Assembly: GCA_016180645.1 (NCBI GenBank)
Contig: JACPAV010000035.1
Coordinates: forward strand, 1-34,894
DNA from: Nitrospirota bacterium
GTDB lineage: Bacteria > JACPQY01
Length of the DNA: 34,894 nt
Direction: 5' to 3'
Under the pieces are notes generated by a model that was not told where the DNA came from, did no database searches, and was given only the letters and a program-made list of their open reading frames with translations. Shown one piece after another: positions 323 through 34,889 of the stretch (its first letter is position 1; every line of letters starts with the position of its first letter). Made by a program: the position numbers and the translations under genes.

Positions 323-436
323 GTGAAATACTTGGGAGTACCGACAGTTAGCACGTACTTCGGTGGAGAACGCGAGCTGGTGATTACGATCGCCTCATGC
401 AACTTGAATTTCTAGGTCACCAATAGCCGGTATTTA

Positions 437-621
437 GAGCCTCTAACAGAATGCGTAGGGGAGGGCCTTCATGCGTAGGGGAGGGCCTCCATGCGTAGGG
501 GAGGGTCTTCAGACCCTCCCGACAAGAGGGAGCACCTGTAGGTGCTCCCCTACGAGGAGGCAAGGACAAGAGGGAGCATCTGAAGGTGCTCCCCTACGAA
601 TCGGTATTCTGTTGGAGGTTC
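437..621. mobile_element. MITE-like element carrying GTAG-REP hairpins (copy 1, internally amplified)
   Basis: Terminal inverted repeats GAGCCTCTAACAGAAT / ATTCTGTTGGAGGTTC (14/16); TTA on both sides (434-436, 622-624); internal GTAGGGGAGGGTCTTCAGACCCTCCC...GGGAGCATCTGAAGGTGCTCCCCTAC; 3x 20-bp tandem repeat at 451-510. Confidence 0.75.
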
Positions 622-642
622 TTAAGGTGACATCGGCGGTCT

Positions 643-8638: not shown

Positions 8639-11600
8639 ATGGTCAGCCGACCACGAGCCGGGGGAGTTCTTGCCAGCCGTGCGCTCATCGCCGCATTTTG
8701 GGTTCCGGCCCTTCTCATCGTCTTCACGAATCCCTCATGGTCGCAGACCGAAGAATACCAACGGCGTGTTCCCGGCCCCATACAACGCCCGGCTGAAGAT
8801 ACGAAAGCGCTCATCCAGCTCATGAATCCCTACGATCCGTTGAAGCGGATCCAGGCTGCCGAGAGACTCGGCCGGACCGGGAACCCCATCTACGCCGAAC
8901 CGCTGGGATGGGCGATGGTCGATCGAAATCTGGCGGTGCGAAAGTCGGCCGCCCGCGCGCTCGGCCATTTGCCGGAAGGAGACGCCCTCCCGGTGCTGGT
9001 CCGCGCCCTCTCGAAGGAGAAGGATGACGGCGTGCTGGAATCGGTGTTGGACGCAATGGCCGGGTTCCAGGGTTCCATGGTCGATTGGCAGCTCAAGCAT
9101 TTCATCTCAAGCGCACTGGCCTCGGAACGGGTGCGCCTCAAGGCATTGGACATTTTCGGCACGCGCGCGCCACCCGATGGTCGGGTTTTTCTTGACCTGA
9201 ATCGCGGCTCGTTCCCGCCTGCGATGAGGACCAAGGCGGAGGAAATCATGGCCGAGAGCTACGGGGTCAAACCTCAGGTGCAGGTCTTTCCTCCGGTCTT
9301 CGTCGGTCCCCAAAAGCCCGAACCGGCCCCCGTGCCGGCGCCGACGCCGGTCCCCGCGGTCGAGGAGCCTCCCCCCGATCCCCGCGCGCGCGGTCGATGG
9401 CTTCTGGTAACCAGTTCCGGACTCTATGGTGCATCGTTCCTGGATCTCATGCGACGGGCGTCCGATTCCCAGGTTTCACCGAGCTGGACGATGCCCATCG
9501 GCCTGACCGTGGGCGGCGGCACGGCCTACCTCATGACCCATTTCTCGCACGGTGTGAGCCCCGGCCCCGCCCTTTGGTGGACCTCCTCGGGCATCTGGGG
9601 CGTGGCGGCGTCTCACTGGACCGCCAACGGGATGGGTGAGGGTCACGGTTCCACGAGGCGGCTTTACAACCTGGCGGGCGAGGGGATCGGCCTGGGCGCC
9701 GGGGGGATCTCGGCCTTCGCTCTGGATTGGACGATCAGTGACACCACGTACGTCAACACAGGAGGTGTGGGTGGTGCCCTTTGGGGTTGGGGGCTCGAGC
9801 TGATGAGCGGGCCGGAACGCGATCCGGCCAAGGCGGGCTGGCTCACCCTGGCGGGGGCCACGGGCGGATTGACCCTCGCGGCGCTCTCGACAGAACGGGT
9901 GACCCTCCGGAATTCCAACCTTTCGATGCTGTTCCTGGCCTCCGGCTACGGCGCGTGGGCGGGCGCATGGGCGCCGGGGCTGGGACGACGGTCCATTCCC
10001 GGCCACAAGGCGTGGGGGGGGAGCTTGACGGGACTGACCACTGGATACGCCGCCGGCGTGTTTCTCTCGCAGCGAGTGACCGAGCCGCCCGAATTCGCGT
10101 GGCGCGTGGTGGGCGCGGGCGCGATGGGGAATCTTCTTGGCGCGGGCCTCGGTTTCATGTTCTTCGACACGTTCGACCAACCTTCGATCGCACTAATGGA
10201 GGGGTTGGGTATCGGCGGTCTCGCGACGGGCGTGTACTACGATCACCTTTTCCCAGCCTCGCGGGAGCAGCCGGGCTTCAAGTCATTCGTCTTTCTTTCA
10301 GGGGCCTACTACGGTGCTCTGGTTCCGCGCGCGCTCAACCGGACTCCGCATGGGCGGCGGAGGACGGGACGGATCATGGCAGGATTTCCGATGCTGACCG
10401 CGGCCACGTTGGCATTTGGCAATGGCCTTGAAATCCCTCCGCGCGGAACCGCGGGGCTCTACTGGGGCGAGATTCTAGGGAGTGTGTCGGGCGCGGGCTG
10501 GGCCCTGACCTCCCGCTCCGACCAAGCTCTGCTTTCGGCCCTCGCGATGGGCGGGGGCGTTCTCGGCGCGGCTGGGGGATACGGTATGAGCCAGAGTCTG
10601 TCGTGGGCCCCGATGACGGAGCGTGAACATTCATTCGTCATGCTCCTGACGGCCTCGGGCGCATGGTACGGGGCGTGGGCGCCGGTGATGCTGCCGGGCC
10701 GTGTGGATCTGGACCGTGTGGGTGGCGGCGCGCTCGCGCTCTCCCCTCTGGCTCTCGGTACATCGCTTGTGCTGGCCGATCAGATCGAGCTGCGGCCTCG
10801 CATCAATCACGGGCTTTTCTTCGGGGAGGCCGTCGGATTTCTGGCGGGAGCCGGGGCCGGGTGGTCGCTGCTGGCCGATAGGCGGACGACCACGGCCATG
10901 ATGCTCGCCGGAGGCGCAGGCGGGATGTTCGGCGGCTACGTGTTCGTGCGGAACATGGCGGCGGCGTCTCCGGTCCGCGCGTGGCGGGAAAGCATCCTCG
11001 TGGCTCACGGCACGCTGGCGGGCGCGTGGTACGGCGGGTGGACGGCGAGGTCGTTCCGATTGTCCGGCCGCCGCATTTCGGCCCGACGGGTTTCGGGCGG
11101 CGCACTCCTGGGGGGAACCGTCGGCCTCACGGGTACGATGTGGATCACCAATCACTACGACGTGCAGAATCGAGTCCTGCCGGGGCTGTTCTATGGTCAG
11201 GTGATGGGCGGTACGTTCGGGCAAGGCGTCGGGTTCCTCATGACGCGATCGACGGGGCGCAATCCATCGGACGAAACGCTGGGGAAGATCGACCGCGAAG
11301 TGGATCGTTCCTACTACATCATGGCGGCTTCGAGCGCCGCGGGGATGACCGGAGGGTATTTCTTCGCGACCCGGATGGCCGATCCCTCCTCTTGGAGAGG
11401 GAAGGAGACGTCGTGGTTCTTTCTCCACTCGTCGTTTGCGGCATGGTACGGGGCATGGCTTCCCACCATGGGCCGTTCGCGCGTGGCGGACGTGGAGCAG
11501 CGCCACGTCTTCGGGGGTGTGATGACGGCCGTGCCGACCGCGATGGCCGCCTCGATCTGGAGTGCAAACCATATGGATCTGTCGCCGAGGACCGTGCCGT

Positions 11601-13927
11601 CGCTCCTGCTGGGAGGAATCTTGGGCACTTCAACCGGCATCGGAGTCGCGGAAACCACGCTGGGTTCGGGCCGGTTCAGACGAGCGTCCATGCTGACGGG
11701 TGGCGCGGCAGGTGAACTCTTCGGCTACGCCTACGGCCGCGCGTTGAGAGCGGGATCGCCGAACACGACGCCAATGGCGGCGGCCGTCACGAGTCTGGGC
11801 ACGTTCTCCGGCCTTTGGTACGGCGCGTGGCTGCCGACGCTCGTTGCGCGGGATCTTTCGGATGTGTCCGATCGGCGCATCGCGGGCGGGGTGATGGTGG
11901 GCGGGCCGGCAGCCTTCGCGGTTTCGTTGTGGACAGCCAATCAAGTCGGCATCAGCCCGCGGTCGGCCACGGGATTTTTTCTCGGCGAGGGGTTGGGCAC
12001 GTCGTTTGGCGCGGGCCTCGGGTTGCTGATCCATTCGGACGATCGCTGGAGAAGCACATTCATGCTCTCTTCGGGGGCACTGGGCGCATGGAGCGGCTTG
12101 GAAATGGCGCGCCGGATGATCGGGCCGTCCGCTTTCCGGGATGACGAGGGGGCGGTGGCCGTGGCGCTCTCGACGGCGTCGTTCACGTGGTATGGAACGT
12201 GGCTGCCGACGCTTGCCGTGCGCGATTTGAAGAAGGGTTCGCCTTCGGGGGTCATCGGCGGGGCCATGATGGCGGCGCCGGTCGGATTCGCGGCGTCCAC
12301 ATGGATCGTGAATCACCACGTCGTTCGGGAGCGGGACCTGAAAGGAATCTTCGGCGGCGAGGTGATGGGATTCTCCGTCGGCGCCGGGATCGGGATGGCC
12401 GGTTTGAGCTCGCGTAGATGGACCACCTCGCTCATGCTCGGGACCGGTGCGGTGGGCGCCCTCGCGGGCTACCGGGTCGCTCAACGTCTGCCCGGTCAGG
12501 CGCTGGAGGACTATCCGCCGCTTCTGGCATTCACCGCTCTCACCGGGCTGTGGTACGGAGGGTGGTCGCCCACGTTCACGGCGCGGAGGTGGTCCGACAT
12601 CGAGTCCAGGCGCGTGACCGGCGGCCTCATGATCGGCGGTCCGTTGGGCCTGGCGACGGGTCTCATTCTCCGCCATCGCCAAGTGGAGCCGTTGGCCTAC
12701 ACGGGATTCTTCATGGGGGAAAGTCTCGGTTCCATGGGGGGGGCGGGGGCCGCGATGACGCTGGATTCGTCCCACAGGAAGACCACGGCCGCGATGCTCG
12801 CCTCGGGCGTCGCCCTGGGGGCCGCGGGGTCGAGGGTGCTGCCGCGGATGAAACTCTCCGATCCGCAGCAGAAGGCGTTGGGGATGGGCGCGTTCTTCGG
12901 CGTGAGCTACGGAGCGCTCCTGCCGTATGTGGTGGAAGGCCGCAGGCGCGAAGTTGAAGGCAAACAGATTGCCGGCGGCGTGATGTTCGGTCTGCCGGCG
13001 GGTCTGGTGACCACGACGGCCGCTTTCGCTTTCTGGGACCCCGCAGGGGGTTCGGTGGGCCTCACCTGGTTGTCCGGCATCATCGGCTCGGCTGCCGGGC
13101 TGGGCCTCGGTCTGACGATCGAAGATTGGAACTCGCGGGCCGTCATCGGTTCGATGTATTCCACCGGCCTCAGCGGACTGGCGTTGGGCGCGCGCGCGCC
13201 GCAAATCAAGTACACCTCGGGAGCGCTTCTCTTCTCCACCTTCGGCACCGTCTACGGGTTCAGCCAGGGGTTGGCGCTGAGTATTTTCGGCGATTTTTCC
13301 GAGCGGCAGGCGATCGGGGCGATGATGTTGGGTTCGTCTCTCGGCCTCGGCACGTCGTTGATCATCACCTACGATCTTCAAGTGGGGACGGGCGGGGCGG
13401 CCGTGGCGTACACGGGCGGGATCTGGGGCGGATTCGTTGGGGCGATGCTCGCGCAGGTGGCGGCGGGCGGCAAAGAGGAGACGACGACGGCCGCCGTCAT
13501 CGTGAGCAATGCAGGGCAACTGGCGACCACGTTTTCCCTCTTGTATCTCCGTATTCCGCCGAGACGCATGGGTTGGATCAACTTGTTTGGTCTGACCGGC
13601 TTGGGGATCGGGAGCGCCATCGGACTTCCGCTCAGCGAGGGAGGCGATGTGTTCTTCATCACCGCGCCGGCGGGGAGTTTGATCGGGCTGACGACGGGGG
13701 CGATCGTCACATCCTACTGGGACTGGGAAGAGGAGCGGAAAGATTCGGGGCAGACGCCTTCAATCGGTGGCGCGTCGCCGCTCCGCGAGACATCGCCCGG
13801 ACACGGTTGGCGTTCGCTCGTTCCGCGCGTGGATGCCGTGGCGCCGCAATTCGGACTCCTTCCCGATCCGAGCGGCCGGGACCCCGAAGGGCGATATACG
13901 GTTGGCGTCATGATCTGGTATCACTAG
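8639..13927 (+). CDS. Giant exported protein: HEAT repeats, Pro-rich linker, ~120-aa Gly-rich hydrophobic tandem repeats, C-terminal beta-strand-like tail
   Basis: 1762-aa ORF; signal-like N-terminus; HEAT motifs RIQAAERLG and VRKSAARALG; nine WYGxWxP-type motifs spaced about 350-420 nt apart. Confidence 0.85.
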   Translation: MVSRPRAGGVLASRALIAAFWVPALLIVFTNPSWSQTEEYQRRVPGPIQRPAEDTKALIQLMNPYDPLKRIQAAERLGRTGNPIYAEPLGWAMVDRNLAVRKSAARALGHLPEGDALPVLVRALSKEKDDGVLESVLDAMAGFQGSMVDWQLKHFISSALASERVRLKALDIFGTRAPPDGRVFLDLNRGSFPPAMRTKAEEIMAESYGVKPQVQVFPPVFVGPQKPEPAPVPAPTPVPAVEEPPPDPRARGRWLLVTSSGLYGASFLDLMRRASDSQVSPSWTMPIGLTVGGGTAYLMTHFSHGVSPGPALWWTSSGIWGVAASHWTANGMGEGHGSTRRLYNLAGEGIGLGAGGISAFALDWTISDTTYVNTGGVGGALWGWGLELMSGPERDPAKAGWLTLAGATGGLTLAALSTERVTLRNSNLSMLFLASGYGAWAGAWAPGLGRRSIPGHKAWGGSLTGLTTGYAAGVFLSQRVTEPPEFAWRVVGAGAMGNLLGAGLGFMFFDTFDQPSIALMEGLGIGGLATGVYYDHLFPASREQPGFKSFVFLSGAYYGALVPRALNRTPHGRRRTGRIMAGFPMLTAATLAFGNGLEIPPRGTAGLYWGEILGSVSGAGWALTSRSDQALLSALAMGGGVLGAAGGYGMSQSLSWAPMTEREHSFVMLLTASGAWYGAWAPVMLPGRVDLDRVGGGALALSPLALGTSLVLADQIELRPRINHGLFFGEAVGFLAGAGAGWSLLADRRTTTAMMLAGGAGGMFGGYVFVRNMAAASPVRAWRESILVAHGTLAGAWYGGWTARSFRLSGRRISARRVSGGALLGGTVGLTGTMWITNHYDVQNRVLPGLFYGQVMGGTFGQGVGFLMTRSTGRNPSDETLGKIDREVDRSYYIMAASSAAGMTGGYFFATRMADPSSWRGKETSWFFLHSSFAAWYGAWLPTMGRSRVADVEQRHVFGGVMTAVPTAMAASIWSANHMDLSPRTVPSLLLGGILGTSTGIGVAETTLGSGRFRRASMLTGGAAGELFGYAYGRALRAGSPNTTPMAAAVTSLGTFSGLWYGAWLPTLVARDLSDVSDRRIAGGVMVGGPAAFAVSLWTANQVGISPRSATGFFLGEGLGTSFGAGLGLLIHSDDRWRSTFMLSSGALGAWSGLEMARRMIGPSAFRDDEGAVAVALSTASFTWYGTWLPTLAVRDLKKGSPSGVIGGAMMAAPVGFAASTWIVNHHVVRERDLKGIFGGEVMGFSVGAGIGMAGLSSRRWTTSLMLGTGAVGALAGYRVAQRLPGQALEDYPPLLAFTALTGLWYGGWSPTFTARRWSDIESRRVTGGLMIGGPLGLATGLILRHRQVEPLAYTGFFMGESLGSMGGAGAAMTLDSSHRKTTAAMLASGVALGAAGSRVLPRMKLSDPQQKALGMGAFFGVSYGALLPYVVEGRRREVEGKQIAGGVMFGLPAGLVTTTAAFAFWDPAGGSVGLTWLSGIIGSAAGLGLGLTIEDWNSRAVIGSMYSTGLSGLALGARAPQIKYTSGALLFSTFGTVYGFSQGLALSIFGDFSERQAIGAMMLGSSLGLGTSLIITYDLQVGTGGAAVAYTGGIWGGFVGAMLAQVAAGGKEETTTAAVIVSNAGQLATTFSLLYLRIPPRRMGWINLFGLTGLGIGSAIGLPLSEGGDVFFITAPAGSLIGLTTGAIVTSYWDWEEERKDSGQTPSIGGASPLRETSPGHGWRSLVPRVDAVAPQFGLLPDPSGRDPEGRYTVGVMIWYH

Positions 13928-13934
13928 ATCGCAT

Positions 13935-14507
13935 ATGGAATTCCGTATCCAACTTCCTGCGATGCTGGCCGGACTCCTGACGCTGATCGCCTCCGCCCTC
14001 CCGGCCCAAGCCGAAGGACCCCGAATCACCATCGAGTTCCGGGACAATCGCGGGGATTTTGCTTACGACGTGTACAAGGACGGAGAGTGGCAGGAGATGG
14101 ACTACTACGGGCGGCAGCTTGAGAGGCTCGTCAAAGAGGACGAACAAGCGAGGAGGTTCGCGAGGGACCTGGCGGACGATCGGGAGGAGGGGAGGCAGGG
14201 CAGGATCTTTGGGCATGTACTCCTGTGGGGCTCGGTGCTGGGGACGATTGTGGCGGCGAGCTCCGAATCGACGGGCGGCACATTGCTGGGCGTGGCTGGG
14301 ATGGTCGGCGGGATCGTAGTTGCATCCAACGGAAAATCGAAAGGCCGGAAGGCCTACCGGTACCTTTTCCGGGCCGTGAACACGTACAATGAATCCATGG
14401 CCGTTCGGGGTGCTGTGCCTTCGGGTCCGGCCGTTGGCCAGCCCGGTACTCCGGATTGCTCTTGCGGCGAAGGAACTTTTCCACCCGGCGGCGCAGGGAA
14501 TCCATAG
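13935..14507 (+). CDS. Hypothetical exported protein with a Gly-rich hydrophobic hairpin
   Basis: 190 aa, starts 7 nt after the giant gene; signal peptide ending LPAQA; LLWGSVLGTIVA...GTLLGVAGMVGGIVVA. Confidence 0.7.
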   Translation: MEFRIQLPAMLAGLLTLIASALPAQAEGPRITIEFRDNRGDFAYDVYKDGEWQEMDYYGRQLERLVKEDEQARRFARDLADDREEGRQGRIFGHVLLWGSVLGTIVAASSESTGGTLLGVAGMVGGIVVASNGKSKGRKAYRYLFRAVNTYNESMAVRGAVPSGPAVGQPGTPDCSCGEGTFPPGGAGNP

Positions 14508-14550
14508 CGATTCAATTCGCCGTCCCCGAAGCGAAGCGGAGAGGGGCGGG
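14494..14550 (+). mobile_element. 57-bp palindromic element, copy A (overlaps the 3' end of the 190-aa gene)
   Basis: CAGGGAATCCATAGCGATTCAATTCGCCGTCCCCGAAGCGAAGCGGAGAGGGGCGGG, preceded by CGGCG; collinear with four other copies. Confidence 0.7.
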
Positions 14551-14611
14551 CCGTGAAGGGAGGTATTACGCTCTATTTGAAAACCCCATCGTTGCCGGGA
14601 GGGATGTCTTG

Positions 14612-14666
14612 GTAGTCGCACCCTTTACGGGTGCATCCTCAGACGCAGGCTGAAGCCTGCGTCTAC
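14612..14666. repeat. GTAG-type REP doublet (family 2)
   Basis: GTAGTCGCACCCTTTACGGGTGC...GACGCAGGCTGAAGCCTGCGTCTAC; two hairpins with inverted GTAG ends, lying between convergent genes. Confidence 0.8.
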
Positions 14667-16291: not shown

Positions 16292-17170
16292 CTACAGGAG
16301 CCACGACTTGCTCAACTTCGTCAGCACTTTCTCGAGTTGATCCAGAAGCGCTTTGACGCGCTTTTCCGTTTCCGGATCGTTCACCTTGGTGAGAATCTGG
16401 TTGAGCTTGGTCGTGATGTCCTTGCCGTTGCGGATGATGGTCTGAAGGTTCTCCTTCTCGGAGTCGGTGAGCCGTCGGATCTCCGCGGCGGTGTGCGAGA
16501 CGTCGTCGAGCGCGGGCTTGGCCTTGTCGGTCAGCTCCTGAAGGTTCCTGACCGTCGTACTGATCTCTCTTTCATGCGTTTGAAAAAACGTTTTCACATT
16601 GCGAATGAGGACGGCCGAGTCCTGAATGGCGGTGGCCACGTTCGCTTGGGATCCGCCCTTCTCCGCGCCGCCGGAAATGACCTCGTTGATCTTGGAGAGG
16701 CTTTTCGCAAAATCATTCATCGCCGGTGAGAACTTGGCGAACATCTGTCCGGCCTGGTTGAGGAGCTCGGAGACATCGGTGCTCGGGAGGACGTTGGATA
16801 TCTCACCGCCGTCCTCAATGAGCGGCGCCTCCGGGCTGCCGGGTGTCAGCTCCACGACCTTTTCGCCGAGGAGGCTCTTGGGACGGATCGTGGCGGTGGC
16901 ATCGGCGTGCAATTGGACATCCTGGTTGATCGACATGGCCATCCTCGCGCCGCCCTCGATGTAGCGGATGCTCTCGACGCGACCGATGGGCACGCCGGCG
17001 ATCTGCACGCTCCCGAGAGCTACGACGCCCTGCGCGTGGGGAAACGTGGCGCTGACGGTGTAGCGGCTGCCGAACTTGAACGTGCCGAACTTGATGCCGA
17101 TGAAGATGATCACCACGATGGAGGCCAGGACGAACAGACCCACCTTGAGTTCCGCGGAGAACTTTTTCAC
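16292..17170 (-). CDS. mlaD: MlaD/MCE-domain protein with a long helical C-terminal extension
   Basis: ELKVGLFV TM anchor; VQIAGVPIGRV; SLLGEKVVELTPG; coiled-coil-like tail. Confidence 0.92.
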   Translation of the reverse strand: MKKFSAELKVGLFVLASIVVIIFIGIKFGTFKFGSRYTVSATFPHAQGVVALGSVQIAGVPIGRVESIRYIEGGARMAMSINQDVQLHADATATIRPKSLLGEKVVELTPGSPEAPLIEDGGEISNVLPSTDVSELLNQAGQMFAKFSPAMNDFAKSLSKINEVISGGAEKGGSQANVATAIQDSAVLIRNVKTFFQTHEREISTTVRNLQELTDKAKPALDDVSHTAAEIRRLTDSEKENLQTIIRNGKDITTKLNQILTKVNDPETEKRVKALLDQLEKVLTKLSKSWLL

Positions 17171-17203: not shown

Positions 17204-17260
17204 CGTCGCCCCCTCCGCGTTGCTCCGGGGACGGCGAGATGAAAGGCCATTCGGAGATAG
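17204..17260 (-). mobile_element. 57-bp palindromic element, copy B (intergenic, nested in another repeat)
   Basis: Minus strand CTATCTCCGAATGGCCTTTCATCTCGCCGTCCCCGGAGCAACGCGGAGGGGGCGACG, preceded by CGGCG. Confidence 0.75.
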
Positions 17261-17276
17261 CGCCGAGGGGGAGGGG

Positions 17277-17332
17277 GTAGGCGCAGGCTTTATGCCTGCG
17301 TCTGAAGACGCACCCATAAAGGGTGCGGCTAC
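17277..17332. repeat. GTAG-type REP doublet (family 2)
   Basis: GTAGGCGCAGGCTTTATGCCTGCG...CGCACCCATAAAGGGTGCGGCTAC; reverse-complement homologue of 14612-14666. Confidence 0.8.
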
Positions 17333-17406
17333 CATCCTTTCCCCCCTTGTCCGCCGCGGCGGACTTGCGGGGGTAGGGGAGTATGGGGGGTGCCGAACGG
17401 ATACAT

Positions 17407-18288
17407 TCACAGCACCTTGATCGGGCCGTCGGAGCGGCCTTCGAAGAATTGGGAAAGGATGTCGTTCGCCCTCTCCGCTTCGCTAGGAGGGCGACGAGTG
17501 GATCCCTCATCCTGAAACCGCGTCGACGCCTTGCGAATCTCGTCCTTCGGCCCGTAGGCCACCAGTTTCGACTGGTAGAGCATTCCGATCGTGTGGGCGA
17601 TCTTGAACGTGCTCTTGATGTCGTGGCTGATCACGATGTAGGTGATGCCGAGCCGCGCCTGAGTGTCCAGGATCAGGCGGTCGATGGCGTCGCTGGTCAC
17701 GGGATCGAGGCCGGAGGTCGGCTCGTCGAACACCACCACCTCCGGATCCATCACGATCGCGCGGGCGAGGGCCACGCGCTTGCGCATGCCGCCGGAGAGT
17801 TCCGATGGATTGTAGTGCTCCGTTCCGGGCATTCCGACCAGGCGAAGTTTCTCAGCAACAATGTCACGGATTTCAGTGTCCTTGAGCTGGGTGTGTTTTA
17901 CGAGGGGGAAGGCGACGTTCTCGCCGACGCTCATCGAACCGAACAGCGCCCCGCCTTGAAACAACATGCCGAATTTCTTGCGCAGGCGGTTGAGGGCGCG
18001 ATCGTCGAGGGAGTTGACCTCGACGTCACCCACGAACACGCTTCCGCGGTCCGGCTTCATCAGTCCCACAATGTGCTTCACCAATACGCTTTTCCCCACG
18101 CCGCTCTGACCGATCACGACGGTGGTTTTTCCTCCCGGGATGTCGAGCGTAACGTCGCTGAGCACGGTTTTGCCCTTGAGTATCTTGGTCACGTTTCGAA
18201 TGCGGATGGCGTGGGGATCGTGGCGGAGTGACAGTCGGTCAATCTTCTCCAGCAGGTCGCGGTGATTCGAATTCCGGAACAATCGCAC
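17407..18288 (-). CDS. mlaF: MlaF/Mkl-family ABC ATPase
   Basis: Walker A GQSGVGKS; FGMLFQGGALFGSMSV; LSGGMRKRVALARA; FDEPTSGLDP; contains a 19-aa repeat-derived insertion near the C-terminus. Confidence 0.93.
   Translation of the reverse strand: MRLFRNSNHRDLLEKIDRLSLRHDPHAIRIRNVTKILKGKTVLSDVTLDIPGGKTTVVIGQSGVGKSVLVKHIVGLMKPDRGSVFVGDVEVNSLDDRALNRLRKKFGMLFQGGALFGSMSVGENVAFPLVKHTQLKDTEIRDIVAEKLRLVGMPGTEHYNPSELSGGMRKRVALARAIVMDPEVVVFDEPTSGLDPVTSDAIDRLILDTQARLGITYIVISHDIKSTFKIAHTIGMLYQSKLVAYGPKDEIRKASTRFQDEGSTRRPPSEAERANDILSQFFEGRSDGPIKVL
17464..17520 (-). mobile_element. 57-bp palindromic element, copy C (in frame inside mlaF)
   Basis: CGGTTTCAGGATGAGGGATCCACTCGTCGCCCTCCTAGCGAAGCGGAGAGGGCGAAC, preceded by CGACG; encodes RFQDEGSTRRPPSEAERAN. 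Confidence 0.7.
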
Positions 18289-19243: not shown

Positions 19244-19362
19244 GTAGTCGCAGCCCCTTGCCCAAGACGGCATGGGGCCATGATAGGTTGTGGCCCAGGA
19301 TGGGCCACATGGAACATGGCCTTCAGGCTGCGCACCGAACGCGGGCTGAAGCCCGCGGCTAC
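19244..19362. repeat. GTAG-type REP doublet with a ~60-bp insertion in the first hairpin loop
   Basis: GTAGTCGCAGCC...[insert]...CTTCAGGCTGCG followed by CGCGGGCTGAAGCCCGCGGCTAC. Confidence 0.65.
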
Positions 19363-19394
19363 AAGGACAGAACAGGATGTTGCGGCGCTCAGCC

Positions 19395-25975: not shown

Positions 25976-26202
25976 ATGAGAGCAACTCGGCAGGCACAAT
26001 TCCAACGCAAATACAGGGTGATCTACATGCCTGTCAGAGGTGGCGGGTACAGTGCATTCTTCCCTGCTTTCCCGGAGATCACGCGGTTTGGTATCCAAGT
26101 CTGCGTGCCTGCAAGAAGGCAGCTCGGGAGGCCATCGCTCTCCATTTGGAAGGCCTGGTGCTGCTGGGGGAAAAAGCCTCTCCTGATCCCCGGCTGATCC
26201 AA
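25976..26202 (+). pseudogene. Frameshifted HicB-like gene with a MITE inserted at its 3' end
   Basis: One frame gives KYRVIYMPVRGGGYSAFFPAFPEIT and another gives VWYPSLRACKKAAREAIALHLEGL; removing CG from ACGCGG at ~26081 restores a gap-free HicB alignment. Confidence 0.7.
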
Positions 26203-26303
26203 GAGCCTCTGACAGAATGCCGATTCGTAGGGGAGCATCTTCAGATGCTCCCTCTTGTCGGGAGGGTCTGAAGACCCTCCGCTACGCATTCTGTTAGACG
26301 CAC
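26203..26303. mobile_element. MITE-like element carrying a GTAG-REP doublet (copy 2, 101 bp, inverted relative to copy 1)
   Basis: GAGCCTCTGACAGAAT...GTAGGGGAGCATCTTCAGATGCTCCC...GGGAGGGTCTGAAGACCCTCCGCTAC...ATTCTGTTAGACGCAC; flanks CAA / TAA. Confidence 0.75.
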
Positions 26304-26498
26304 TAAATAGCCCCGGCGCGGGATTTGATCGGGACGCGGGTTTCAGTTGACAGGAACGTTTCGCGGGCGTACATGGTAGGTCCGTGACGCGCCCCGCAGG
26401 TAACACGGAAAGTTCAGCGGGGCAGGAGTCGCTCGTTTCCATTCCAAACATTCCCGGTTTTCAACGGTTCCAGTGTGCAAGGCATGAATAGGGGCGGC

Positions 26499-31778: not shown

Positions 31779-33506
31779 ATGAAGATGGGCAACGGGGCAC
31801 TAATCGACGAAATGGCCGAATGGGTGGCCGGAGTTCGGTATGCCGACATTCCGCCGCGCGTGTGCGAGCGGATCAAAGTGCAATCGATCGGCATGTTGGG
31901 GGCGGCGTTTGGAGGTCTGAAATCCGAAGGCGGCCGCGCGGCGCTCAGCGCGGTGAGAAAGCGGACCGCGGAGGGGGCGGCGCAAGCTCCCGATGGAGAT
32001 TCCGATCGCCGTCCCCGGAGCCGAGCGGAGGGGGCGGCGACGATCTTTCCGACGGGGGAGAAGGGTCCACCGCACGAAGCCTTGTTCGCCAATACTGCGT
32101 TATCGATGACGTTCGACTACGATGACTACCTGTATATGGGTCACACGGGGCATTCGGCCATCTTCTCGCCGTGGGCCGTGTGCGAAGGTCTGGGCCGGAG
32201 CGGCGAAGATTTTCTCCTCGCGGCGGCGGTGGCAAACGAGGTCGAAGGGCGAATTGGAGCAACGGTCCTACTCGGGCCTCACAATGGGCAGCTTTGGTCG
32301 TTCATCCACGCCGTCGGCACCGCCTGCGCCGCGGCGAAGCTGATGGGTTTGAACGCGGCGCAGATTCGGAATGCCATCGGGATCAGCCTCTATCTGCCTC
32401 CCTTCACGATGATGCCGGGCTTCATGGGACCGTCGAGCAAGGTCACCACGGCCGCTTTCCCATCGGTGAACGGCCTGCGGGCGGCGGAACTGGCTGCCGA
32501 AGGGTTGACCGGAGCGGGACGGCTGCTGGAAGATCGGCAGGGTTTCCTGCGGCACTTCTCGTTTATTCCCCTGCCGCGGATGCTCAGCGGGTGGGGTAAG
32601 ACGTGGGTGACCGATTCTCTGAGCTTCAAGGCGTATCCGGGATGCGCCTACGTGAGCTCCATCGCGGAAGCCCTTCGGGCCTCACTCCGGGAGCTCGGGA
32701 TGGAAAGCGGCCTCAAGGATCCGGCCGAGATGGATTCGCTGCGGATTCGCGTCACATTGCTGACGCTCGGGATGGACGGGCTTTCCGCGCCGTACCTGGA
32801 AACGCCGCCGTCTTCGATCCACGTCAACTTCTCGGCCGCCTTGAGTGCCGCCGTCACGCTCCTGAACGGCGATCTGCGGCCGGACCATCTTTCGGAAAAG
32901 AAATTGAAGTCCGATTGGCCGGTCCTGTCGTCCTTTGTCGAGAAGACGCGTGTGGAGCATGATTGGGAAATGACGGTGGAACTGGTCCGTGGGATCGCGC
33001 AGGGCGTCAACCTCGCGCCACTCTTTACGCGCATCCCTGTGAGGGAATGGATTTCCCTCCGTAAGAAGGCGCGGGAACAGCATCACGTTTCGCTCCGCGG
33101 CGTCCGTCCGAAACACATCTGGCGGATCATCAAGACGGCGCGAGGCCGGCATGAGGGCTCGTTCCGCCGCCCCCGAAGCGAAGCGGAGGGGACGGCGCGA
33201 GGCAACGGGGTTGGCGGCCGATTCGATCTGGCGAATGCGAAATTCGAGGACCTCCGGATGAACTTTGCGAGTGAGGTGGAAATCCGGCTCAAGGGCGGCC
33301 GAAGCGCGCGGGCGAGGGTGGACCTTCCCCCGGGATCGTCGGGACGTCCGTGGCAGGAGAGCGTGGACTTGATGGCCGCCAAGCTGGACCGTGAAGCGGC
33401 GGGTTGTCTCTCGGCGGAAAAAATCGCCGCGATCCGCGAAGCGGTCATGGGCATCGAGAAGTGCCGCGATCTCCGCGCTCTTTCGCCCCTCTTCAAGGGG
33501 AATTGA
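31779..33506 (+). CDS. MmgE/PrpD-family protein carrying two 19-aa repeat-derived insertions
   Basis: YADIPP; FDYDDY...GHTGH; SFKAYPGCAY; long for the family at 575 aa. Confidence 0.85.
   Translation: MKMGNGALIDEMAEWVAGVRYADIPPRVCERIKVQSIGMLGAAFGGLKSEGGRAALSAVRKRTAEGAAQAPDGDSDRRPRSRAEGAATIFPTGEKGPPHEALFANTALSMTFDYDDYLYMGHTGHSAIFSPWAVCEGLGRSGEDFLLAAAVANEVEGRIGATVLLGPHNGQLWSFIHAVGTACAAAKLMGLNAAQIRNAIGISLYLPPFTMMPGFMGPSSKVTTAAFPSVNGLRAAELAAEGLTGAGRLLEDRQGFLRHFSFIPLPRMLSGWGKTWVTDSLSFKAYPGCAYVSSIAEALRASLRELGMESGLKDPAEMDSLRIRVTLLTLGMDGLSAPYLETPPSSIHVNFSAALSAAVTLLNGDLRPDHLSEKKLKSDWPVLSSFVEKTRVEHDWEMTVELVRGIAQGVNLAPLFTRIPVREWISLRKKAREQHHVSLRGVRPKHIWRIIKTARGRHEGSFRRPRSEAEGTARGNGVGGRFDLANAKFEDLRMNFASEVEIRLKGGRSARARVDLPPGSSGRPWQESVDLMAAKLDREAAGCLSAEKIAAIREAVMGIEKCRDLRALSPLFKGN
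31983..32039 (+). mobile_element. 57-bp palindromic element, copy D (in frame inside the MmgE/PrpD gene)
   Basis: Direct repeat GCGGAGGGGGCGGCG at 31968 and 32025, exactly 57 bp apart; encodes QAPDGDSDRRPRSRAEGAA. Confidence 0.8.
33141..33197 (+). mobile_element. 57-bp palindromic element, copy E (in frame inside the MmgE/PrpD gene)
   Basis: Direct repeat GACGGCGCGAGGC at 33134 and 33191, exactly 57 bp apart; encodes RGRHEGSFRRPRSEAEGTA. Confidence 0.8.
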
Positions 33507-34743: not shown

Positions 34744-34802
34744 TCAGCCTTTAGAGCCTATCCCAAAACCCGACAGAACCGGAGCGGGATTCGCGGAGCT
34801 TA

Positions 34803-34889
34803 GAGCCTCTGAGAGAATGCCGGTTCGTAGGGGAGCATCTTCAGATGCTCCCTCTTGTCGGGAGGGTCTGAAGACCCTCCCCTACGCAT
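34803..34889. mobile_element. MITE-like element carrying a GTAG-REP doublet (copy 3, right TIR not seen)
   Basis: TTA|GAGCCTCTGAGAGAATGCCGGTTCGTAGGGGAGCATCTTCAGATGCTCCC...GACCCTCCCCTACGCAT, nearly identical to copy 2; a related end TTA|GAGCCTATCCCAAAAC lies at 34754. Confidence 0.7.

Follow-up and report, generated by a model that had tools for sequence, protein, structure and literature searches.

The stretch of DNA considered here, the window, is the whole 34,894 nucleotides (nt) of contig JACPAV010000035.1 from a Nitrospirota bacterium of the lineage JACPQY01 (GenBank assembly GCA_016180645.1; contig C49 of genome G000, a 4.7-Mb assembly of 65 contigs with 60.8% G+C), and it holds five copies of a hairpin-bearing element of about 57 nt. 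The element is very probably a selfish, non-autonomous mobile DNA repeat without a gene of its own, akin to the repetitive extragenic palindromes (REPs) and the Rickettsia palindromic elements (RPEs). To judge from aligned loci, its copies appear to be insertions of 54-57 nt at sites already carrying one pentamer that resembles CGRCG, such that a pentamer of this kind, termed X, comes to lie on each side. The lengths of the units are mostly multiples of three and their frames are mostly free of stop codons; copies in loops and linkers persist as extra segments of 15-19 residues in the encoded proteins.

The five window units align without gaps across 97 columns, with a mean column identity of 69% and 27 invariant columns, and all five were re-found by an independent repeat finder (D2, D4, I5, I8, I10, I13), by nhmmer and by a covariance model. 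Each is directly preceded by CGGCG or CGACG (X), and each contains an internal pentamer, X'. Copy 1 (14489..14550, +; 71.5 bits with the covariance model) is laid out as X (CGGCG, 14489-14493), a 5' module, X' (CGCCG, from 14518) and a CGTC-tagged hairpin with a GCGAAGC core; it supplies an open frame of 190 residues (13935..14507, +) with its final codons and its TAG stop (14505-14507). Copy 2 (17204..17265, -; X CGGCG, X' CGCCG, loop core GCAACGC; 68.4 bits) is intergenic, with the mlaF frame on one side and a downstream frame (16292-17170, -) on the other. Copy 3 (17464..17525, -; X CGACG, X' CGTCG; 56.5 bits) lies in frame in the 3' part of mlaF (17407..18288, -), which remains an intact open reading frame (ORF) for an MlaF-like ABC ATPase of 293 residues with one insert near its C-terminus. 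Copies 4 (31978..32039, +; X' CGCCG; 73.6 bits) and 5 (33136..33197, +; X' CGCCG, loop core GCGAAGC; 61.0 bits) both lie in frame in a gene for an MmgE/PrpD-family protein, hereafter PrpD (31779..33506, +; 575 residues; PF03972 and PF19305), as residues 69-87 and 455-473, and this ORF is intact despite the two inserts. For each of these PrpD copies, a second CGGCG is found exactly 57 nt downstream. Copies 3, 4 and 5 share one element reading frame and are translated as TRFQDEGSTRRPPSEAERAN, QAPDGDSDRRPRSRAEGAA and RGRHEGSFRRPRSEAEGTA, respectively, while the GCGAAGC core is present in copies 1, 3 and 5. A preliminary description, made from the sequence of the window alone, had reported five gap-free copies, CG(G/A)CG before each, GCGAAGC in three, direct repeats 57 bp apart around the PrpD copies and three copies read in the same frame within intact ORFs, and each of these observations was borne out.

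That description also proposed scanning the genome with a profile of the five copies, and the genome-wide search did reveal more of them. An nhmmer profile built from the window copies gave 198 matches at E<1 in G000, and a second round gave 182 matches at E≤1e-3, corresponding to 175 distinct copies on 41 contigs. A strict pattern of 27 nt, with up to two mismatches allowed, was matched 83 times in this genome, as against 0 for a reversed control pattern, an excess well above what chance would produce. The covariance model was built from an alignment (A6) of 51 copies picked for exact complementarity of X and X'; the copies in A6 are diverged, with a mean column identity of 73%. This model found at least 150 matches in G000 and six in G001, the sole other genome of the phylum in the compared collection, and none in 29 genomes from 29 other families.

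Genes were called genome-wide with a crude in-house caller based on codon usage, which covers 78% of the genome. By these calls, 54 copies lie well inside a gene (35 in gene orientation and 19 opposite), 22 lie within 50 codons of a called start, four in the final 10 codons and 24 across a gene end; 71 are intergenic. Intergenic copies between tandem genes showed no orientation preference, with 28 in the same direction as the genes and 23 in the opposite one, and the weak association of orientation with local GC skew (Fisher p = 0.03) was not interpreted. Among the 40 best-scoring host frames, which were searched against Pfam, family matches were obtained for 33; those frames contain 41 copies, 33 of them at 50 or more residues from the start, and with the three in the window, at least 36 copies are in frame within genes. 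Seventeen copies fall within or between Pfam-matched stretches of one protein (for example, Sigma54_activat, TGT, ADH_N, ACR_tran and E1_dh). A sigma-54 activator harbors two, one of them in its AAA domain, where 186 residues cover 167 positions of the Sigma54_activat profile. The other host proteins include AcrB, Mfd (two copies), DnaE, TGT, OGDH-E1, SufBD (two copies), DnaJ (in a linker), TrkH, a zinc alcohol dehydrogenase, a molybdopterin oxidoreductase, a B12-radical-SAM protein, GH31 and a CoA-enzyme activase (two copies). The earlier view of the sequence as a small mobile element that sits in frame within genes thus holds for many unrelated genes.

The 33 Pfam-backed internal copies are read in five of the six possible frames (+0, 15; +2, nine; +1, one; -0, seven; -2, one), and the peptides that result from different frames, such as RRPRSEAEG, SSSPERSGGG and PPPLRSGDDE, are unrelated. 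The unit is poor in stops, 54-91% of intergenic copies being open depending on the frame, and the frame use of copies in gene orientation is roughly reproduced by the product of two factors, CGRYGC availability by codon phase and freedom from stops. The prominence of frame +0 is what would be expected of a functional protein module, with the RRPRSEAEG-like peptide recurring under protein-level selection. Next to no credence can be given to that explanation, however, given the use of five frames and both orientations within genes, the 71 intergenic copies, the conservation of nucleotide pairs as the defining features of the unit, and the modeling of the PrpD inserts as low-confidence coil. The element spreads at the level of DNA and not of the peptide.

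Evidence that the in-gene segments were inserted came from orthologues. At four loci the corresponding gene of G001 lacks the segment cleanly: MlaF (78% identity between the two genomes) is without exactly 57 nt, or 19 residues, at the site of copy 3; TGT (72% identity) is without 57 nt; Mfd at its first site (50% identity over the N-terminal stretch and 62% over residues 398-1170) is also without 57 nt; and OGDH-E1 (68% identity) is without 54 nt. The second site in Mfd is compound, and there G001 lacks 34 residues. PrpD was aligned with 32 homologues, the two closest and 30 more distant ones. The first insert (copy 4) is missing in all 30 of the latter, as a gap of 19 columns in 29 and of 21 in one, and gaps of 15 and 11 are found at its position in the two closest. 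The second insert (copy 5) is missing in both close homologues, at a site that is a loop of variable length in the family. Because the gaps in G001 are clean and PrpD homologues are without the segment, the 19-residue segments are considered insertions and not ancestral sequence, which answers in the affirmative the earlier question of whether orthologues would show clean gaps. An AlphaFold2 model of PrpD (mean predicted local distance difference test, pLDDT, 87.8; predicted template modeling score, pTM, 0.91) has internal pLDDT values below 50 only at residues 78-82 and 461-479, both called within the inserts.

An origin without any transposition, by slippage, tandem duplication and gene conversion, would cast the in-gene segments as locally duplicated loops of low complexity. 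Five head-to-tail arrays with a period of 57-58 nt and partial internal duplications of 34-35 nt at several loci are in keeping with such processes. Yet the approximately 175 copies are scattered over 41 contigs and unrelated genes, the empty sites of the orthologues have no partial copy nearby, and gene conversion requires a prior homologous tract at every site; as a general account, this origin is so improbable as to be nearly negligible.

The empty sites also indicate where the element inserts. At all four clean ones, a single X-like pentamer is positioned exactly at the junction (CGGCG, CGACG, CGACG and CCGCG). Three of these are exact matches to CGRCG, which has a background frequency of one per 158 nt per strand, and the estimated probability of such an outcome by chance is approximately 1e-5 to 1e-4, making coincidence very unlikely. 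At filled sites, in turn, X is found to the left of the insert and a degraded version of it to the right. Over the whole family, 31 of the 175 copies have a 3' pentamer identical to their own X; shuffles averaged 14.5 and reached 22 at most, and pentamers taken 10 nt further out gave one. One copy is common to G000 (contig C65) and G001 at the same site, and a short variant of 45 nt is nested in the hairpin of the G000 version only; the family is thus older than the divergence of the two genomes, and insertion went on afterwards.

Conservation within the unit spans profile column 17 to approximately column 76, in the order CGRYG-C, a stretch of about 24 nt, CRYCG, the hairpin TCCCC-GRA-GC-GRA-GC-GGA-GGGG and then an X-like pentamer. 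The stretch of about 24 nt features conserved CAT and TTC, with near-invariant AT (columns 32-33), TTC (columns 39-41) and T (column 45). In an unbiased mutual-information scan over all column pairs, the pairs 19-48 (GC 84, AT 68, GT 1) and 20-47 (CG 117, TA 25) ranked first, and on account of these counts, the 5' pentamer X and the internal X' are taken to be complementary and co-varying. Exact complementarity at five of five bases was found in 142 of 175 copies; shuffling X' among copies gave 52 on average and never more than 69. These figures for X and X' rest on unfiltered sets of copies, since A6 had been preselected for exact complementarity. The pairing recurs in subfamilies with different sequences, namely CGGCG/CGCCG (77 copies), CGACG/CGTCG (54), CGATG/CATCG (22), CGGTG/CACCG (9) and rarer ones. 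What had been described as a fixed short flank is, in fact, a pentamer that varies from copy to copy in step with an internal complement. An alternative pairing of X' with the X-like pentamer 3' of the hairpin also co-varies, but much more weakly. A further helix within the 5' module (A6 columns 12-16 with 28-32) was considered; its pairs are 45-88% paired, and it is not claimed.

The hairpin itself is well maintained, its core being 94.6% paired in A6, with CG-to-UA exchanges, and its GC(GRA)GC mini-hairpin 97% paired. The stem opens with four C:G pairs and leads to a 3-nt GRA loop closed by GC/GC, with G.A juxtapositions at columns 56-68 and 58-66; after the stem, the consensus is (G/A)CGG. 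The tetranucleotide CGTC is present at profile columns 49-52 in 147 of 175 copies, and it straddles the junction between X' and the stem, with two bases from each. Unit length is not constant. The preliminary description had stressed a length of 57 bp as a triplet multiple; most lengths are indeed multiples of three, but the rule is not strict, given tandem periods of 57 or 58 nt, one 54-nt insertion and one 45-nt short variant. The head-to-tail arrays with a period of 57-58 nt number five, and one inverted pair, 78 nt apart, was also found. Full elements repeatedly contain, within their hairpins and after CGTCGTCC(C), a short variant of 34-45 nt with CGGTG as X, CACCG as X' and the short hairpin TCCCCGGAGGGGG; in G000, this variant was located at C20:46573/46607, C20:69342/69377, C48:48091/48125, C53:8201/8236 and near position 10470 of C65.

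The juxtapositions in the hairpin core are strongly asymmetric, with 136 of G.T and 12 of A.C; the top strand is therefore the folding strand, and the structure is good on that strand only. Folding that is specific to one strand points to a single-stranded nucleic acid. That nucleic acid could be RNA, and the copies could stem from an abundant structured small RNA that was reverse-transcribed and integrated; the excess of G.T over A.C suits RNA as well as it does single-stranded DNA, and the helices co-vary. But a scan of the window at Rfam gathering thresholds gave no matches, intergenic orientation is unbiased (as noted, 28 against 23 in tandem gene pairs), no master gene was seen, and the appearance on both sides of the insert of a pentamer that the empty site has once argues for site-specific joining of DNA. 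A small RNA origin is accordingly regarded as highly improbable.

The selfish repeat probably acts as single-stranded DNA, and its conserved parts would then lend themselves to a guided mechanism, which by analogy with known elements seems possible, if somewhat unlikely. In the IS200/IS605 family, HUH (Y1) enzymes act on single-stranded hairpins, and a guide sequence at the foot of the hairpin recognizes the site of cleavage or the target by base pairing. The 57-nt element would similarly act through its top strand, with X' as the guide that pairs with X and defines both junction and target. The better-kept 5' X would move with the element and the poorer 3' X would be the target's own sequence, while cutting and joining would be performed by an enzyme supplied in trans; passage through conjugative DNA may have aided the spread. 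The likeness to the IS200/IS605 elements and to REPs with their REP-associated tyrosine transposases (RAYTs) lies in an X' positioned 5' of the hairpin and complementary to the boundary or target X, in strand-specific folding and in the density on conjugative DNA. Complementarity of the guide type is seen in the exact X':X pairing of the 142 copies and in the X-like pentamers at empty sites; a role in cleavage would be by analogy. On the other hand, the 57-nt element differs in having one hairpin, one guide, plain Watson-Crick pairing over 5 bp and an X-like pentamer on both sides, and it does not appear to be a miniature derived from an IS200/IS605 element: subterminal hairpins at both ends were not found, and none of the seven Y1 genes of the genome has element-like ends. 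The most specific version of the proposal, a minimal self-guided insertion unit for single-stranded DNA in which one hairpin and a 5-nt guide X', by pairing with X, set the boundary and the insertion pentamer, is doubtful.

The density on conjugative DNA concerns contigs C20 and C29, which carry 2.4-2.5 copies per 10 kb in comparison to about 0.3 elsewhere, an enrichment of approximately eightfold; their copies belong mostly to the CGACG subfamily. These contigs encode TraC/TraG, TraE, TrbI, SSB, ParB, Toprim primases and Tn3 transposases, together with C5 and N6/N4 methylases, SNF2 and PD-(D/E)XK proteins (L087-L096). With this gene content, the two contigs appear to be conjugative DNA, which would enter cells in single-stranded form. 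Very large proteins of 1490 and 1789 residues, without a Pfam family, are also encoded there.

The same enrichment, along with the folding of the top strand, would suit a signal in single-stranded DNA that is kept by the host, such as the target of an Ssn (GIY-YIG) nuclease policing incoming transforming or conjugative DNA, with the intragenic copies as by-products. According to the portions of the Neisseria study drawn on here (PMC11893778), CGTC-tagged NTS hairpins are substrates of Ssn GIY-YIG nucleases, which cleave them in single-stranded form, and the placement of CGTC directly 5' of the hairpin in 147 of 175 copies corresponds to the layout of the NTS/dRS3 repeats cut by SsnA. The likeness to these NTS/SRM sequences, within the part of their description used, comprises an oriented repeat of CGTC plus hairpin, recognition as single-stranded DNA and abundance in some genomes. 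Moreover, a copy of the 57-nt element (26422-26489) is positioned at the 3' end of a small GIY-YIG gene (C33:26565-26777). This copy is degenerate, however, and lies on one side only; it accounts for the sole association among five GIY-YIG genes, with an estimated probability by chance of approximately 0.06. A search of NCBIfam with three small GIY-YIG proteins, that of C33 among them, gave no informative family, and the published degenerate SRM search motif fits none of the 175 copies, its 48 matches in the genome all being away from them. A policing signal would also leave the dozens of insertions in coding regions and the covariation of X and X' unexplained, and this explanation is deemed distinctly unlikely.

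Several observations weigh against reading the element as a mobile selfish repeat, or against parts of that reading. It flanks none of the seven Y1 (HUH) transposase-like genes in the genome, and the single GIY-YIG gene of five with a neighboring copy has a degenerate one. Conservation of X is far lower on the 3' side than on the 5' side (31 versus 142 copies), so that simple target-site duplication is insufficient by itself. Folding energies calculated for the five window copies, for both strands as DNA, were not better than those of shuffled sequences (z from -1.87 to +1.68); it is covariation, not thermodynamics, that supports the structure, energies alone being uninformative in GC-rich DNA. 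The uneven use of frames by copies in opposite orientation is explained neither by target availability nor by freedom from stops, and the positional tallies inherit the crudeness of the gene caller and its 78% coverage. Since there is but one relative genome, precise loss in G001 is possible as the cause of the empty sites. The divergence of the copies and the shared copy on C65 imply that much of the family is old, and it may no longer be active. Finally, no polymorphism between filled and empty states was seen in four DNA runs, these being contigs from one groundwater study in which rare alleles are not visible; the run contigs are identical across the window copies, with no 57-nt skip among the alignments listed, and the runs listed as containing this DNA include no RNA run. 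The selfish-repeat reading nevertheless remains the favored one.

The proposal in the preliminary description of an HUH mechanism of the RAYT or IS200 kind was not upheld by gene association: two of the seven Y1 genes are flanked by other repeats, and five by inverted repeats of their own (three of the TGGGGTCAAG type and two others). A RAYT-like Y1 frame of 159 residues (G000:C25:35110-35430) is flanked by doublets of a GTAG-headed REP, which is the second repeat family of the window (430-623, 26193-26309 and 34790-34889); its hairpins (GTAGGGGAGC...TCTTCAGA...GCTCCC) form inverted doublets and are REPIN-like. Another Y1 frame (G000:C25:105800-106063) is flanked by an inverted pair of the GGTAGTCGCA type, related to the third repeat family of the window (TGGTAGTCGCACCC...GGGTGC...CAGACGCAGGC; 14610-14650, 17294-17334 and 19339-19371), at which the read depth of the runs peaks. 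Three Y1-like genes of about 315-370 residues (G000:C48:52251-53979 and C46:14702-15031; L014-L016) have terminal inverted repeats of the TGGGGTCAAG type some 950-990 nt apart, an arrangement resembling the 'TIRYT' one as it is outlined in the text available from PMC3733652. Elsewhere in the window, a frame of 1762 residues (8639-13927) is internally repetitive, its repeats recurring about every 363-390 nt and sharing a WYG(A/G)W motif.

Among known systems, the closest in behavior are the RPEs, repeats of about 150 bp from AT-rich intracellular alphaproteobacteria (Ogata et al., 2000, 2002, as summarized in PMC10969869); the same summary calls in-frame insertions of miniature inverted-repeat transposable elements "not unusual" and treats RPEs as the extreme case. 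In so far as that summary describes them, RPEs and the 57-nt element are alike as gene-less hairpin repeats that have inserted many times, both between genes and in frame within unrelated genes of metabolism and housekeeping, and that add a tolerated, family-specific peptide. The 57-nt element differs in being GC-rich, in belonging to a free-living groundwater lineage of another phylum and in having an X that co-varies with an internal complement, a distinction drawn against the published description of RPEs and not against their sequences. Di Nocera et al. (2013; PMC3733652) distinguish GTAG- and CGTC-tagged superfamilies of REPs, the latter including RPE-4, RPE-6 and the dRS3 repeats of Neisseria. 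In the passages of that paper relied on here, CGTC REPs include intragenic units, many of them in replication and repair genes, and "apparently lack a dedicated transposase"; their tag is CGTC or else TGTC/CCTC, they have stems of 8-9 bp starting with A/T pairs, loops of 4-5 nt and a CCA tail, and they mostly form head-to-head dimers. The 57-nt element shares with them, as so described, the tag at the 5' foot of the stem (147 of 175 copies), the intragenic units and the want of a flanked transposase gene (none of the seven Y1 genes), with the caveat that the CG of its tag pairs with X, the tag of the published families being described as unpaired. By the same account, it departs from the defining features of CGTC REPs in the CCCC start of its stem, in the G.A-flanked internal loops around GC(GRA)GC and in lacking a CCA tail; unlike them, it forms head-to-tail arrays and carries an additional 5' module, about 30 nt long, that pairs with X' through its first five bases. 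From the REP/RAYT (REPIN) systems, as presented there, it is set apart by its CGTC tag in place of GTAG, and the GTAG REPs of this genome are a separate family with a RAYT of their own.

The preliminary description had not recognized the family. This stands in that no Rfam match was obtained and the 57-nt family was not found in the literature, for which GCGAAGC was the only exact sequence searched and supplementary tables were outside the scope; it has to be qualified in that the tag of the CGTC-REP/RPE superfamily is present in most copies, even though the other defining features of that superfamily failed. The 57-nt element is thus of a kind with RPEs and CGTC REPs, and its unusual feature is the relation among X, X' and the target.

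Outside G000, few traces of the family were encountered. One of the six copies in G001 is not independent, as the DNA that carries it includes a 338-residue frame with 100% identity to one on contig C11 of G000. This frame is identical in G001:C68 (L176) and G000:C11:128554-129567, while orthologues are otherwise 60-80% identical; the contig may be shared or mis-binned, or a transfer may have taken place very recently. When 185,579 species genomes were scanned with the hairpin 24-mer, 11 loci were returned, and the whole element was found at one of these only (L077). The other loci (L071-L076 and L078-L081) have the 24-nt CGTC-tagged hairpin CGTCCCCGRAGCGRAGCGGAGGGG alone, with quite different 5' flanks, and belong to two metagenome-assembled genomes of Chloroflexota (with three and four loci), two Streptomyces genomes and one metagenome-assembled genome of the Vulcanimicrobiaceae. 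The hairpin module may have a longer history or a wider distribution than the 57-nt family. Metagenomes were scanned with TTCNNNTCRYCGTCCCCGRAGCG, representing the 5' module and the first hairpin arm, and with this exact pattern the element was not found among the 68 loci obtained: by inspection, the second hairpin arm was present in none and the complementary upstream pentamer in two, and the 68 loci are chance matches in unrelated DNA. Likewise, a search for related loci in genome contigs based on PrpD gave 33 pattern matches and no relatives. In G001, the MlaD-like frame downstream of mlaF (L002, 2288-3358) starts with about 65 low-complexity residues rich in P, G and S (…SPSPSPPAGAARAGPFQGEGTRRPTPSPWKGEGAAP…), and this start may be derived from another repeat.

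For the biology of this organism, the finding extends the phenomenon known from Rickettsia, selfish DNA residing in working genes, to a free-living, GC-rich, deep-branching and uncultured groundwater lineage. The evidence is unusually clean, with dozens of insertions in core genes that serve replication, repair, tRNA modification and Fe-S assembly, and with empty sites resolved to the base. For annotation, loops of 15-19 residues like RRPRSEAEG, SSSPERSGGG and PPPLRSGDDE in proteins of this lineage are to be read as repeat-derived and not as functional motifs. The relation of pentamer, internal complement and hairpin offers a concrete and testable model of target choice for CGTC-tagged repeats. 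Were the element a self-guided unit, its X/X' subfamilies would represent naturally reprogrammed versions for different targets, of which the CGACG version would have expanded on conjugative DNA; the trans-acting enzyme would not be flanked by the element, and it could possibly be encoded among the unassigned genes of the conjugative contigs. If this model holds, the element would constitute a very small natural system for programmable insertion.

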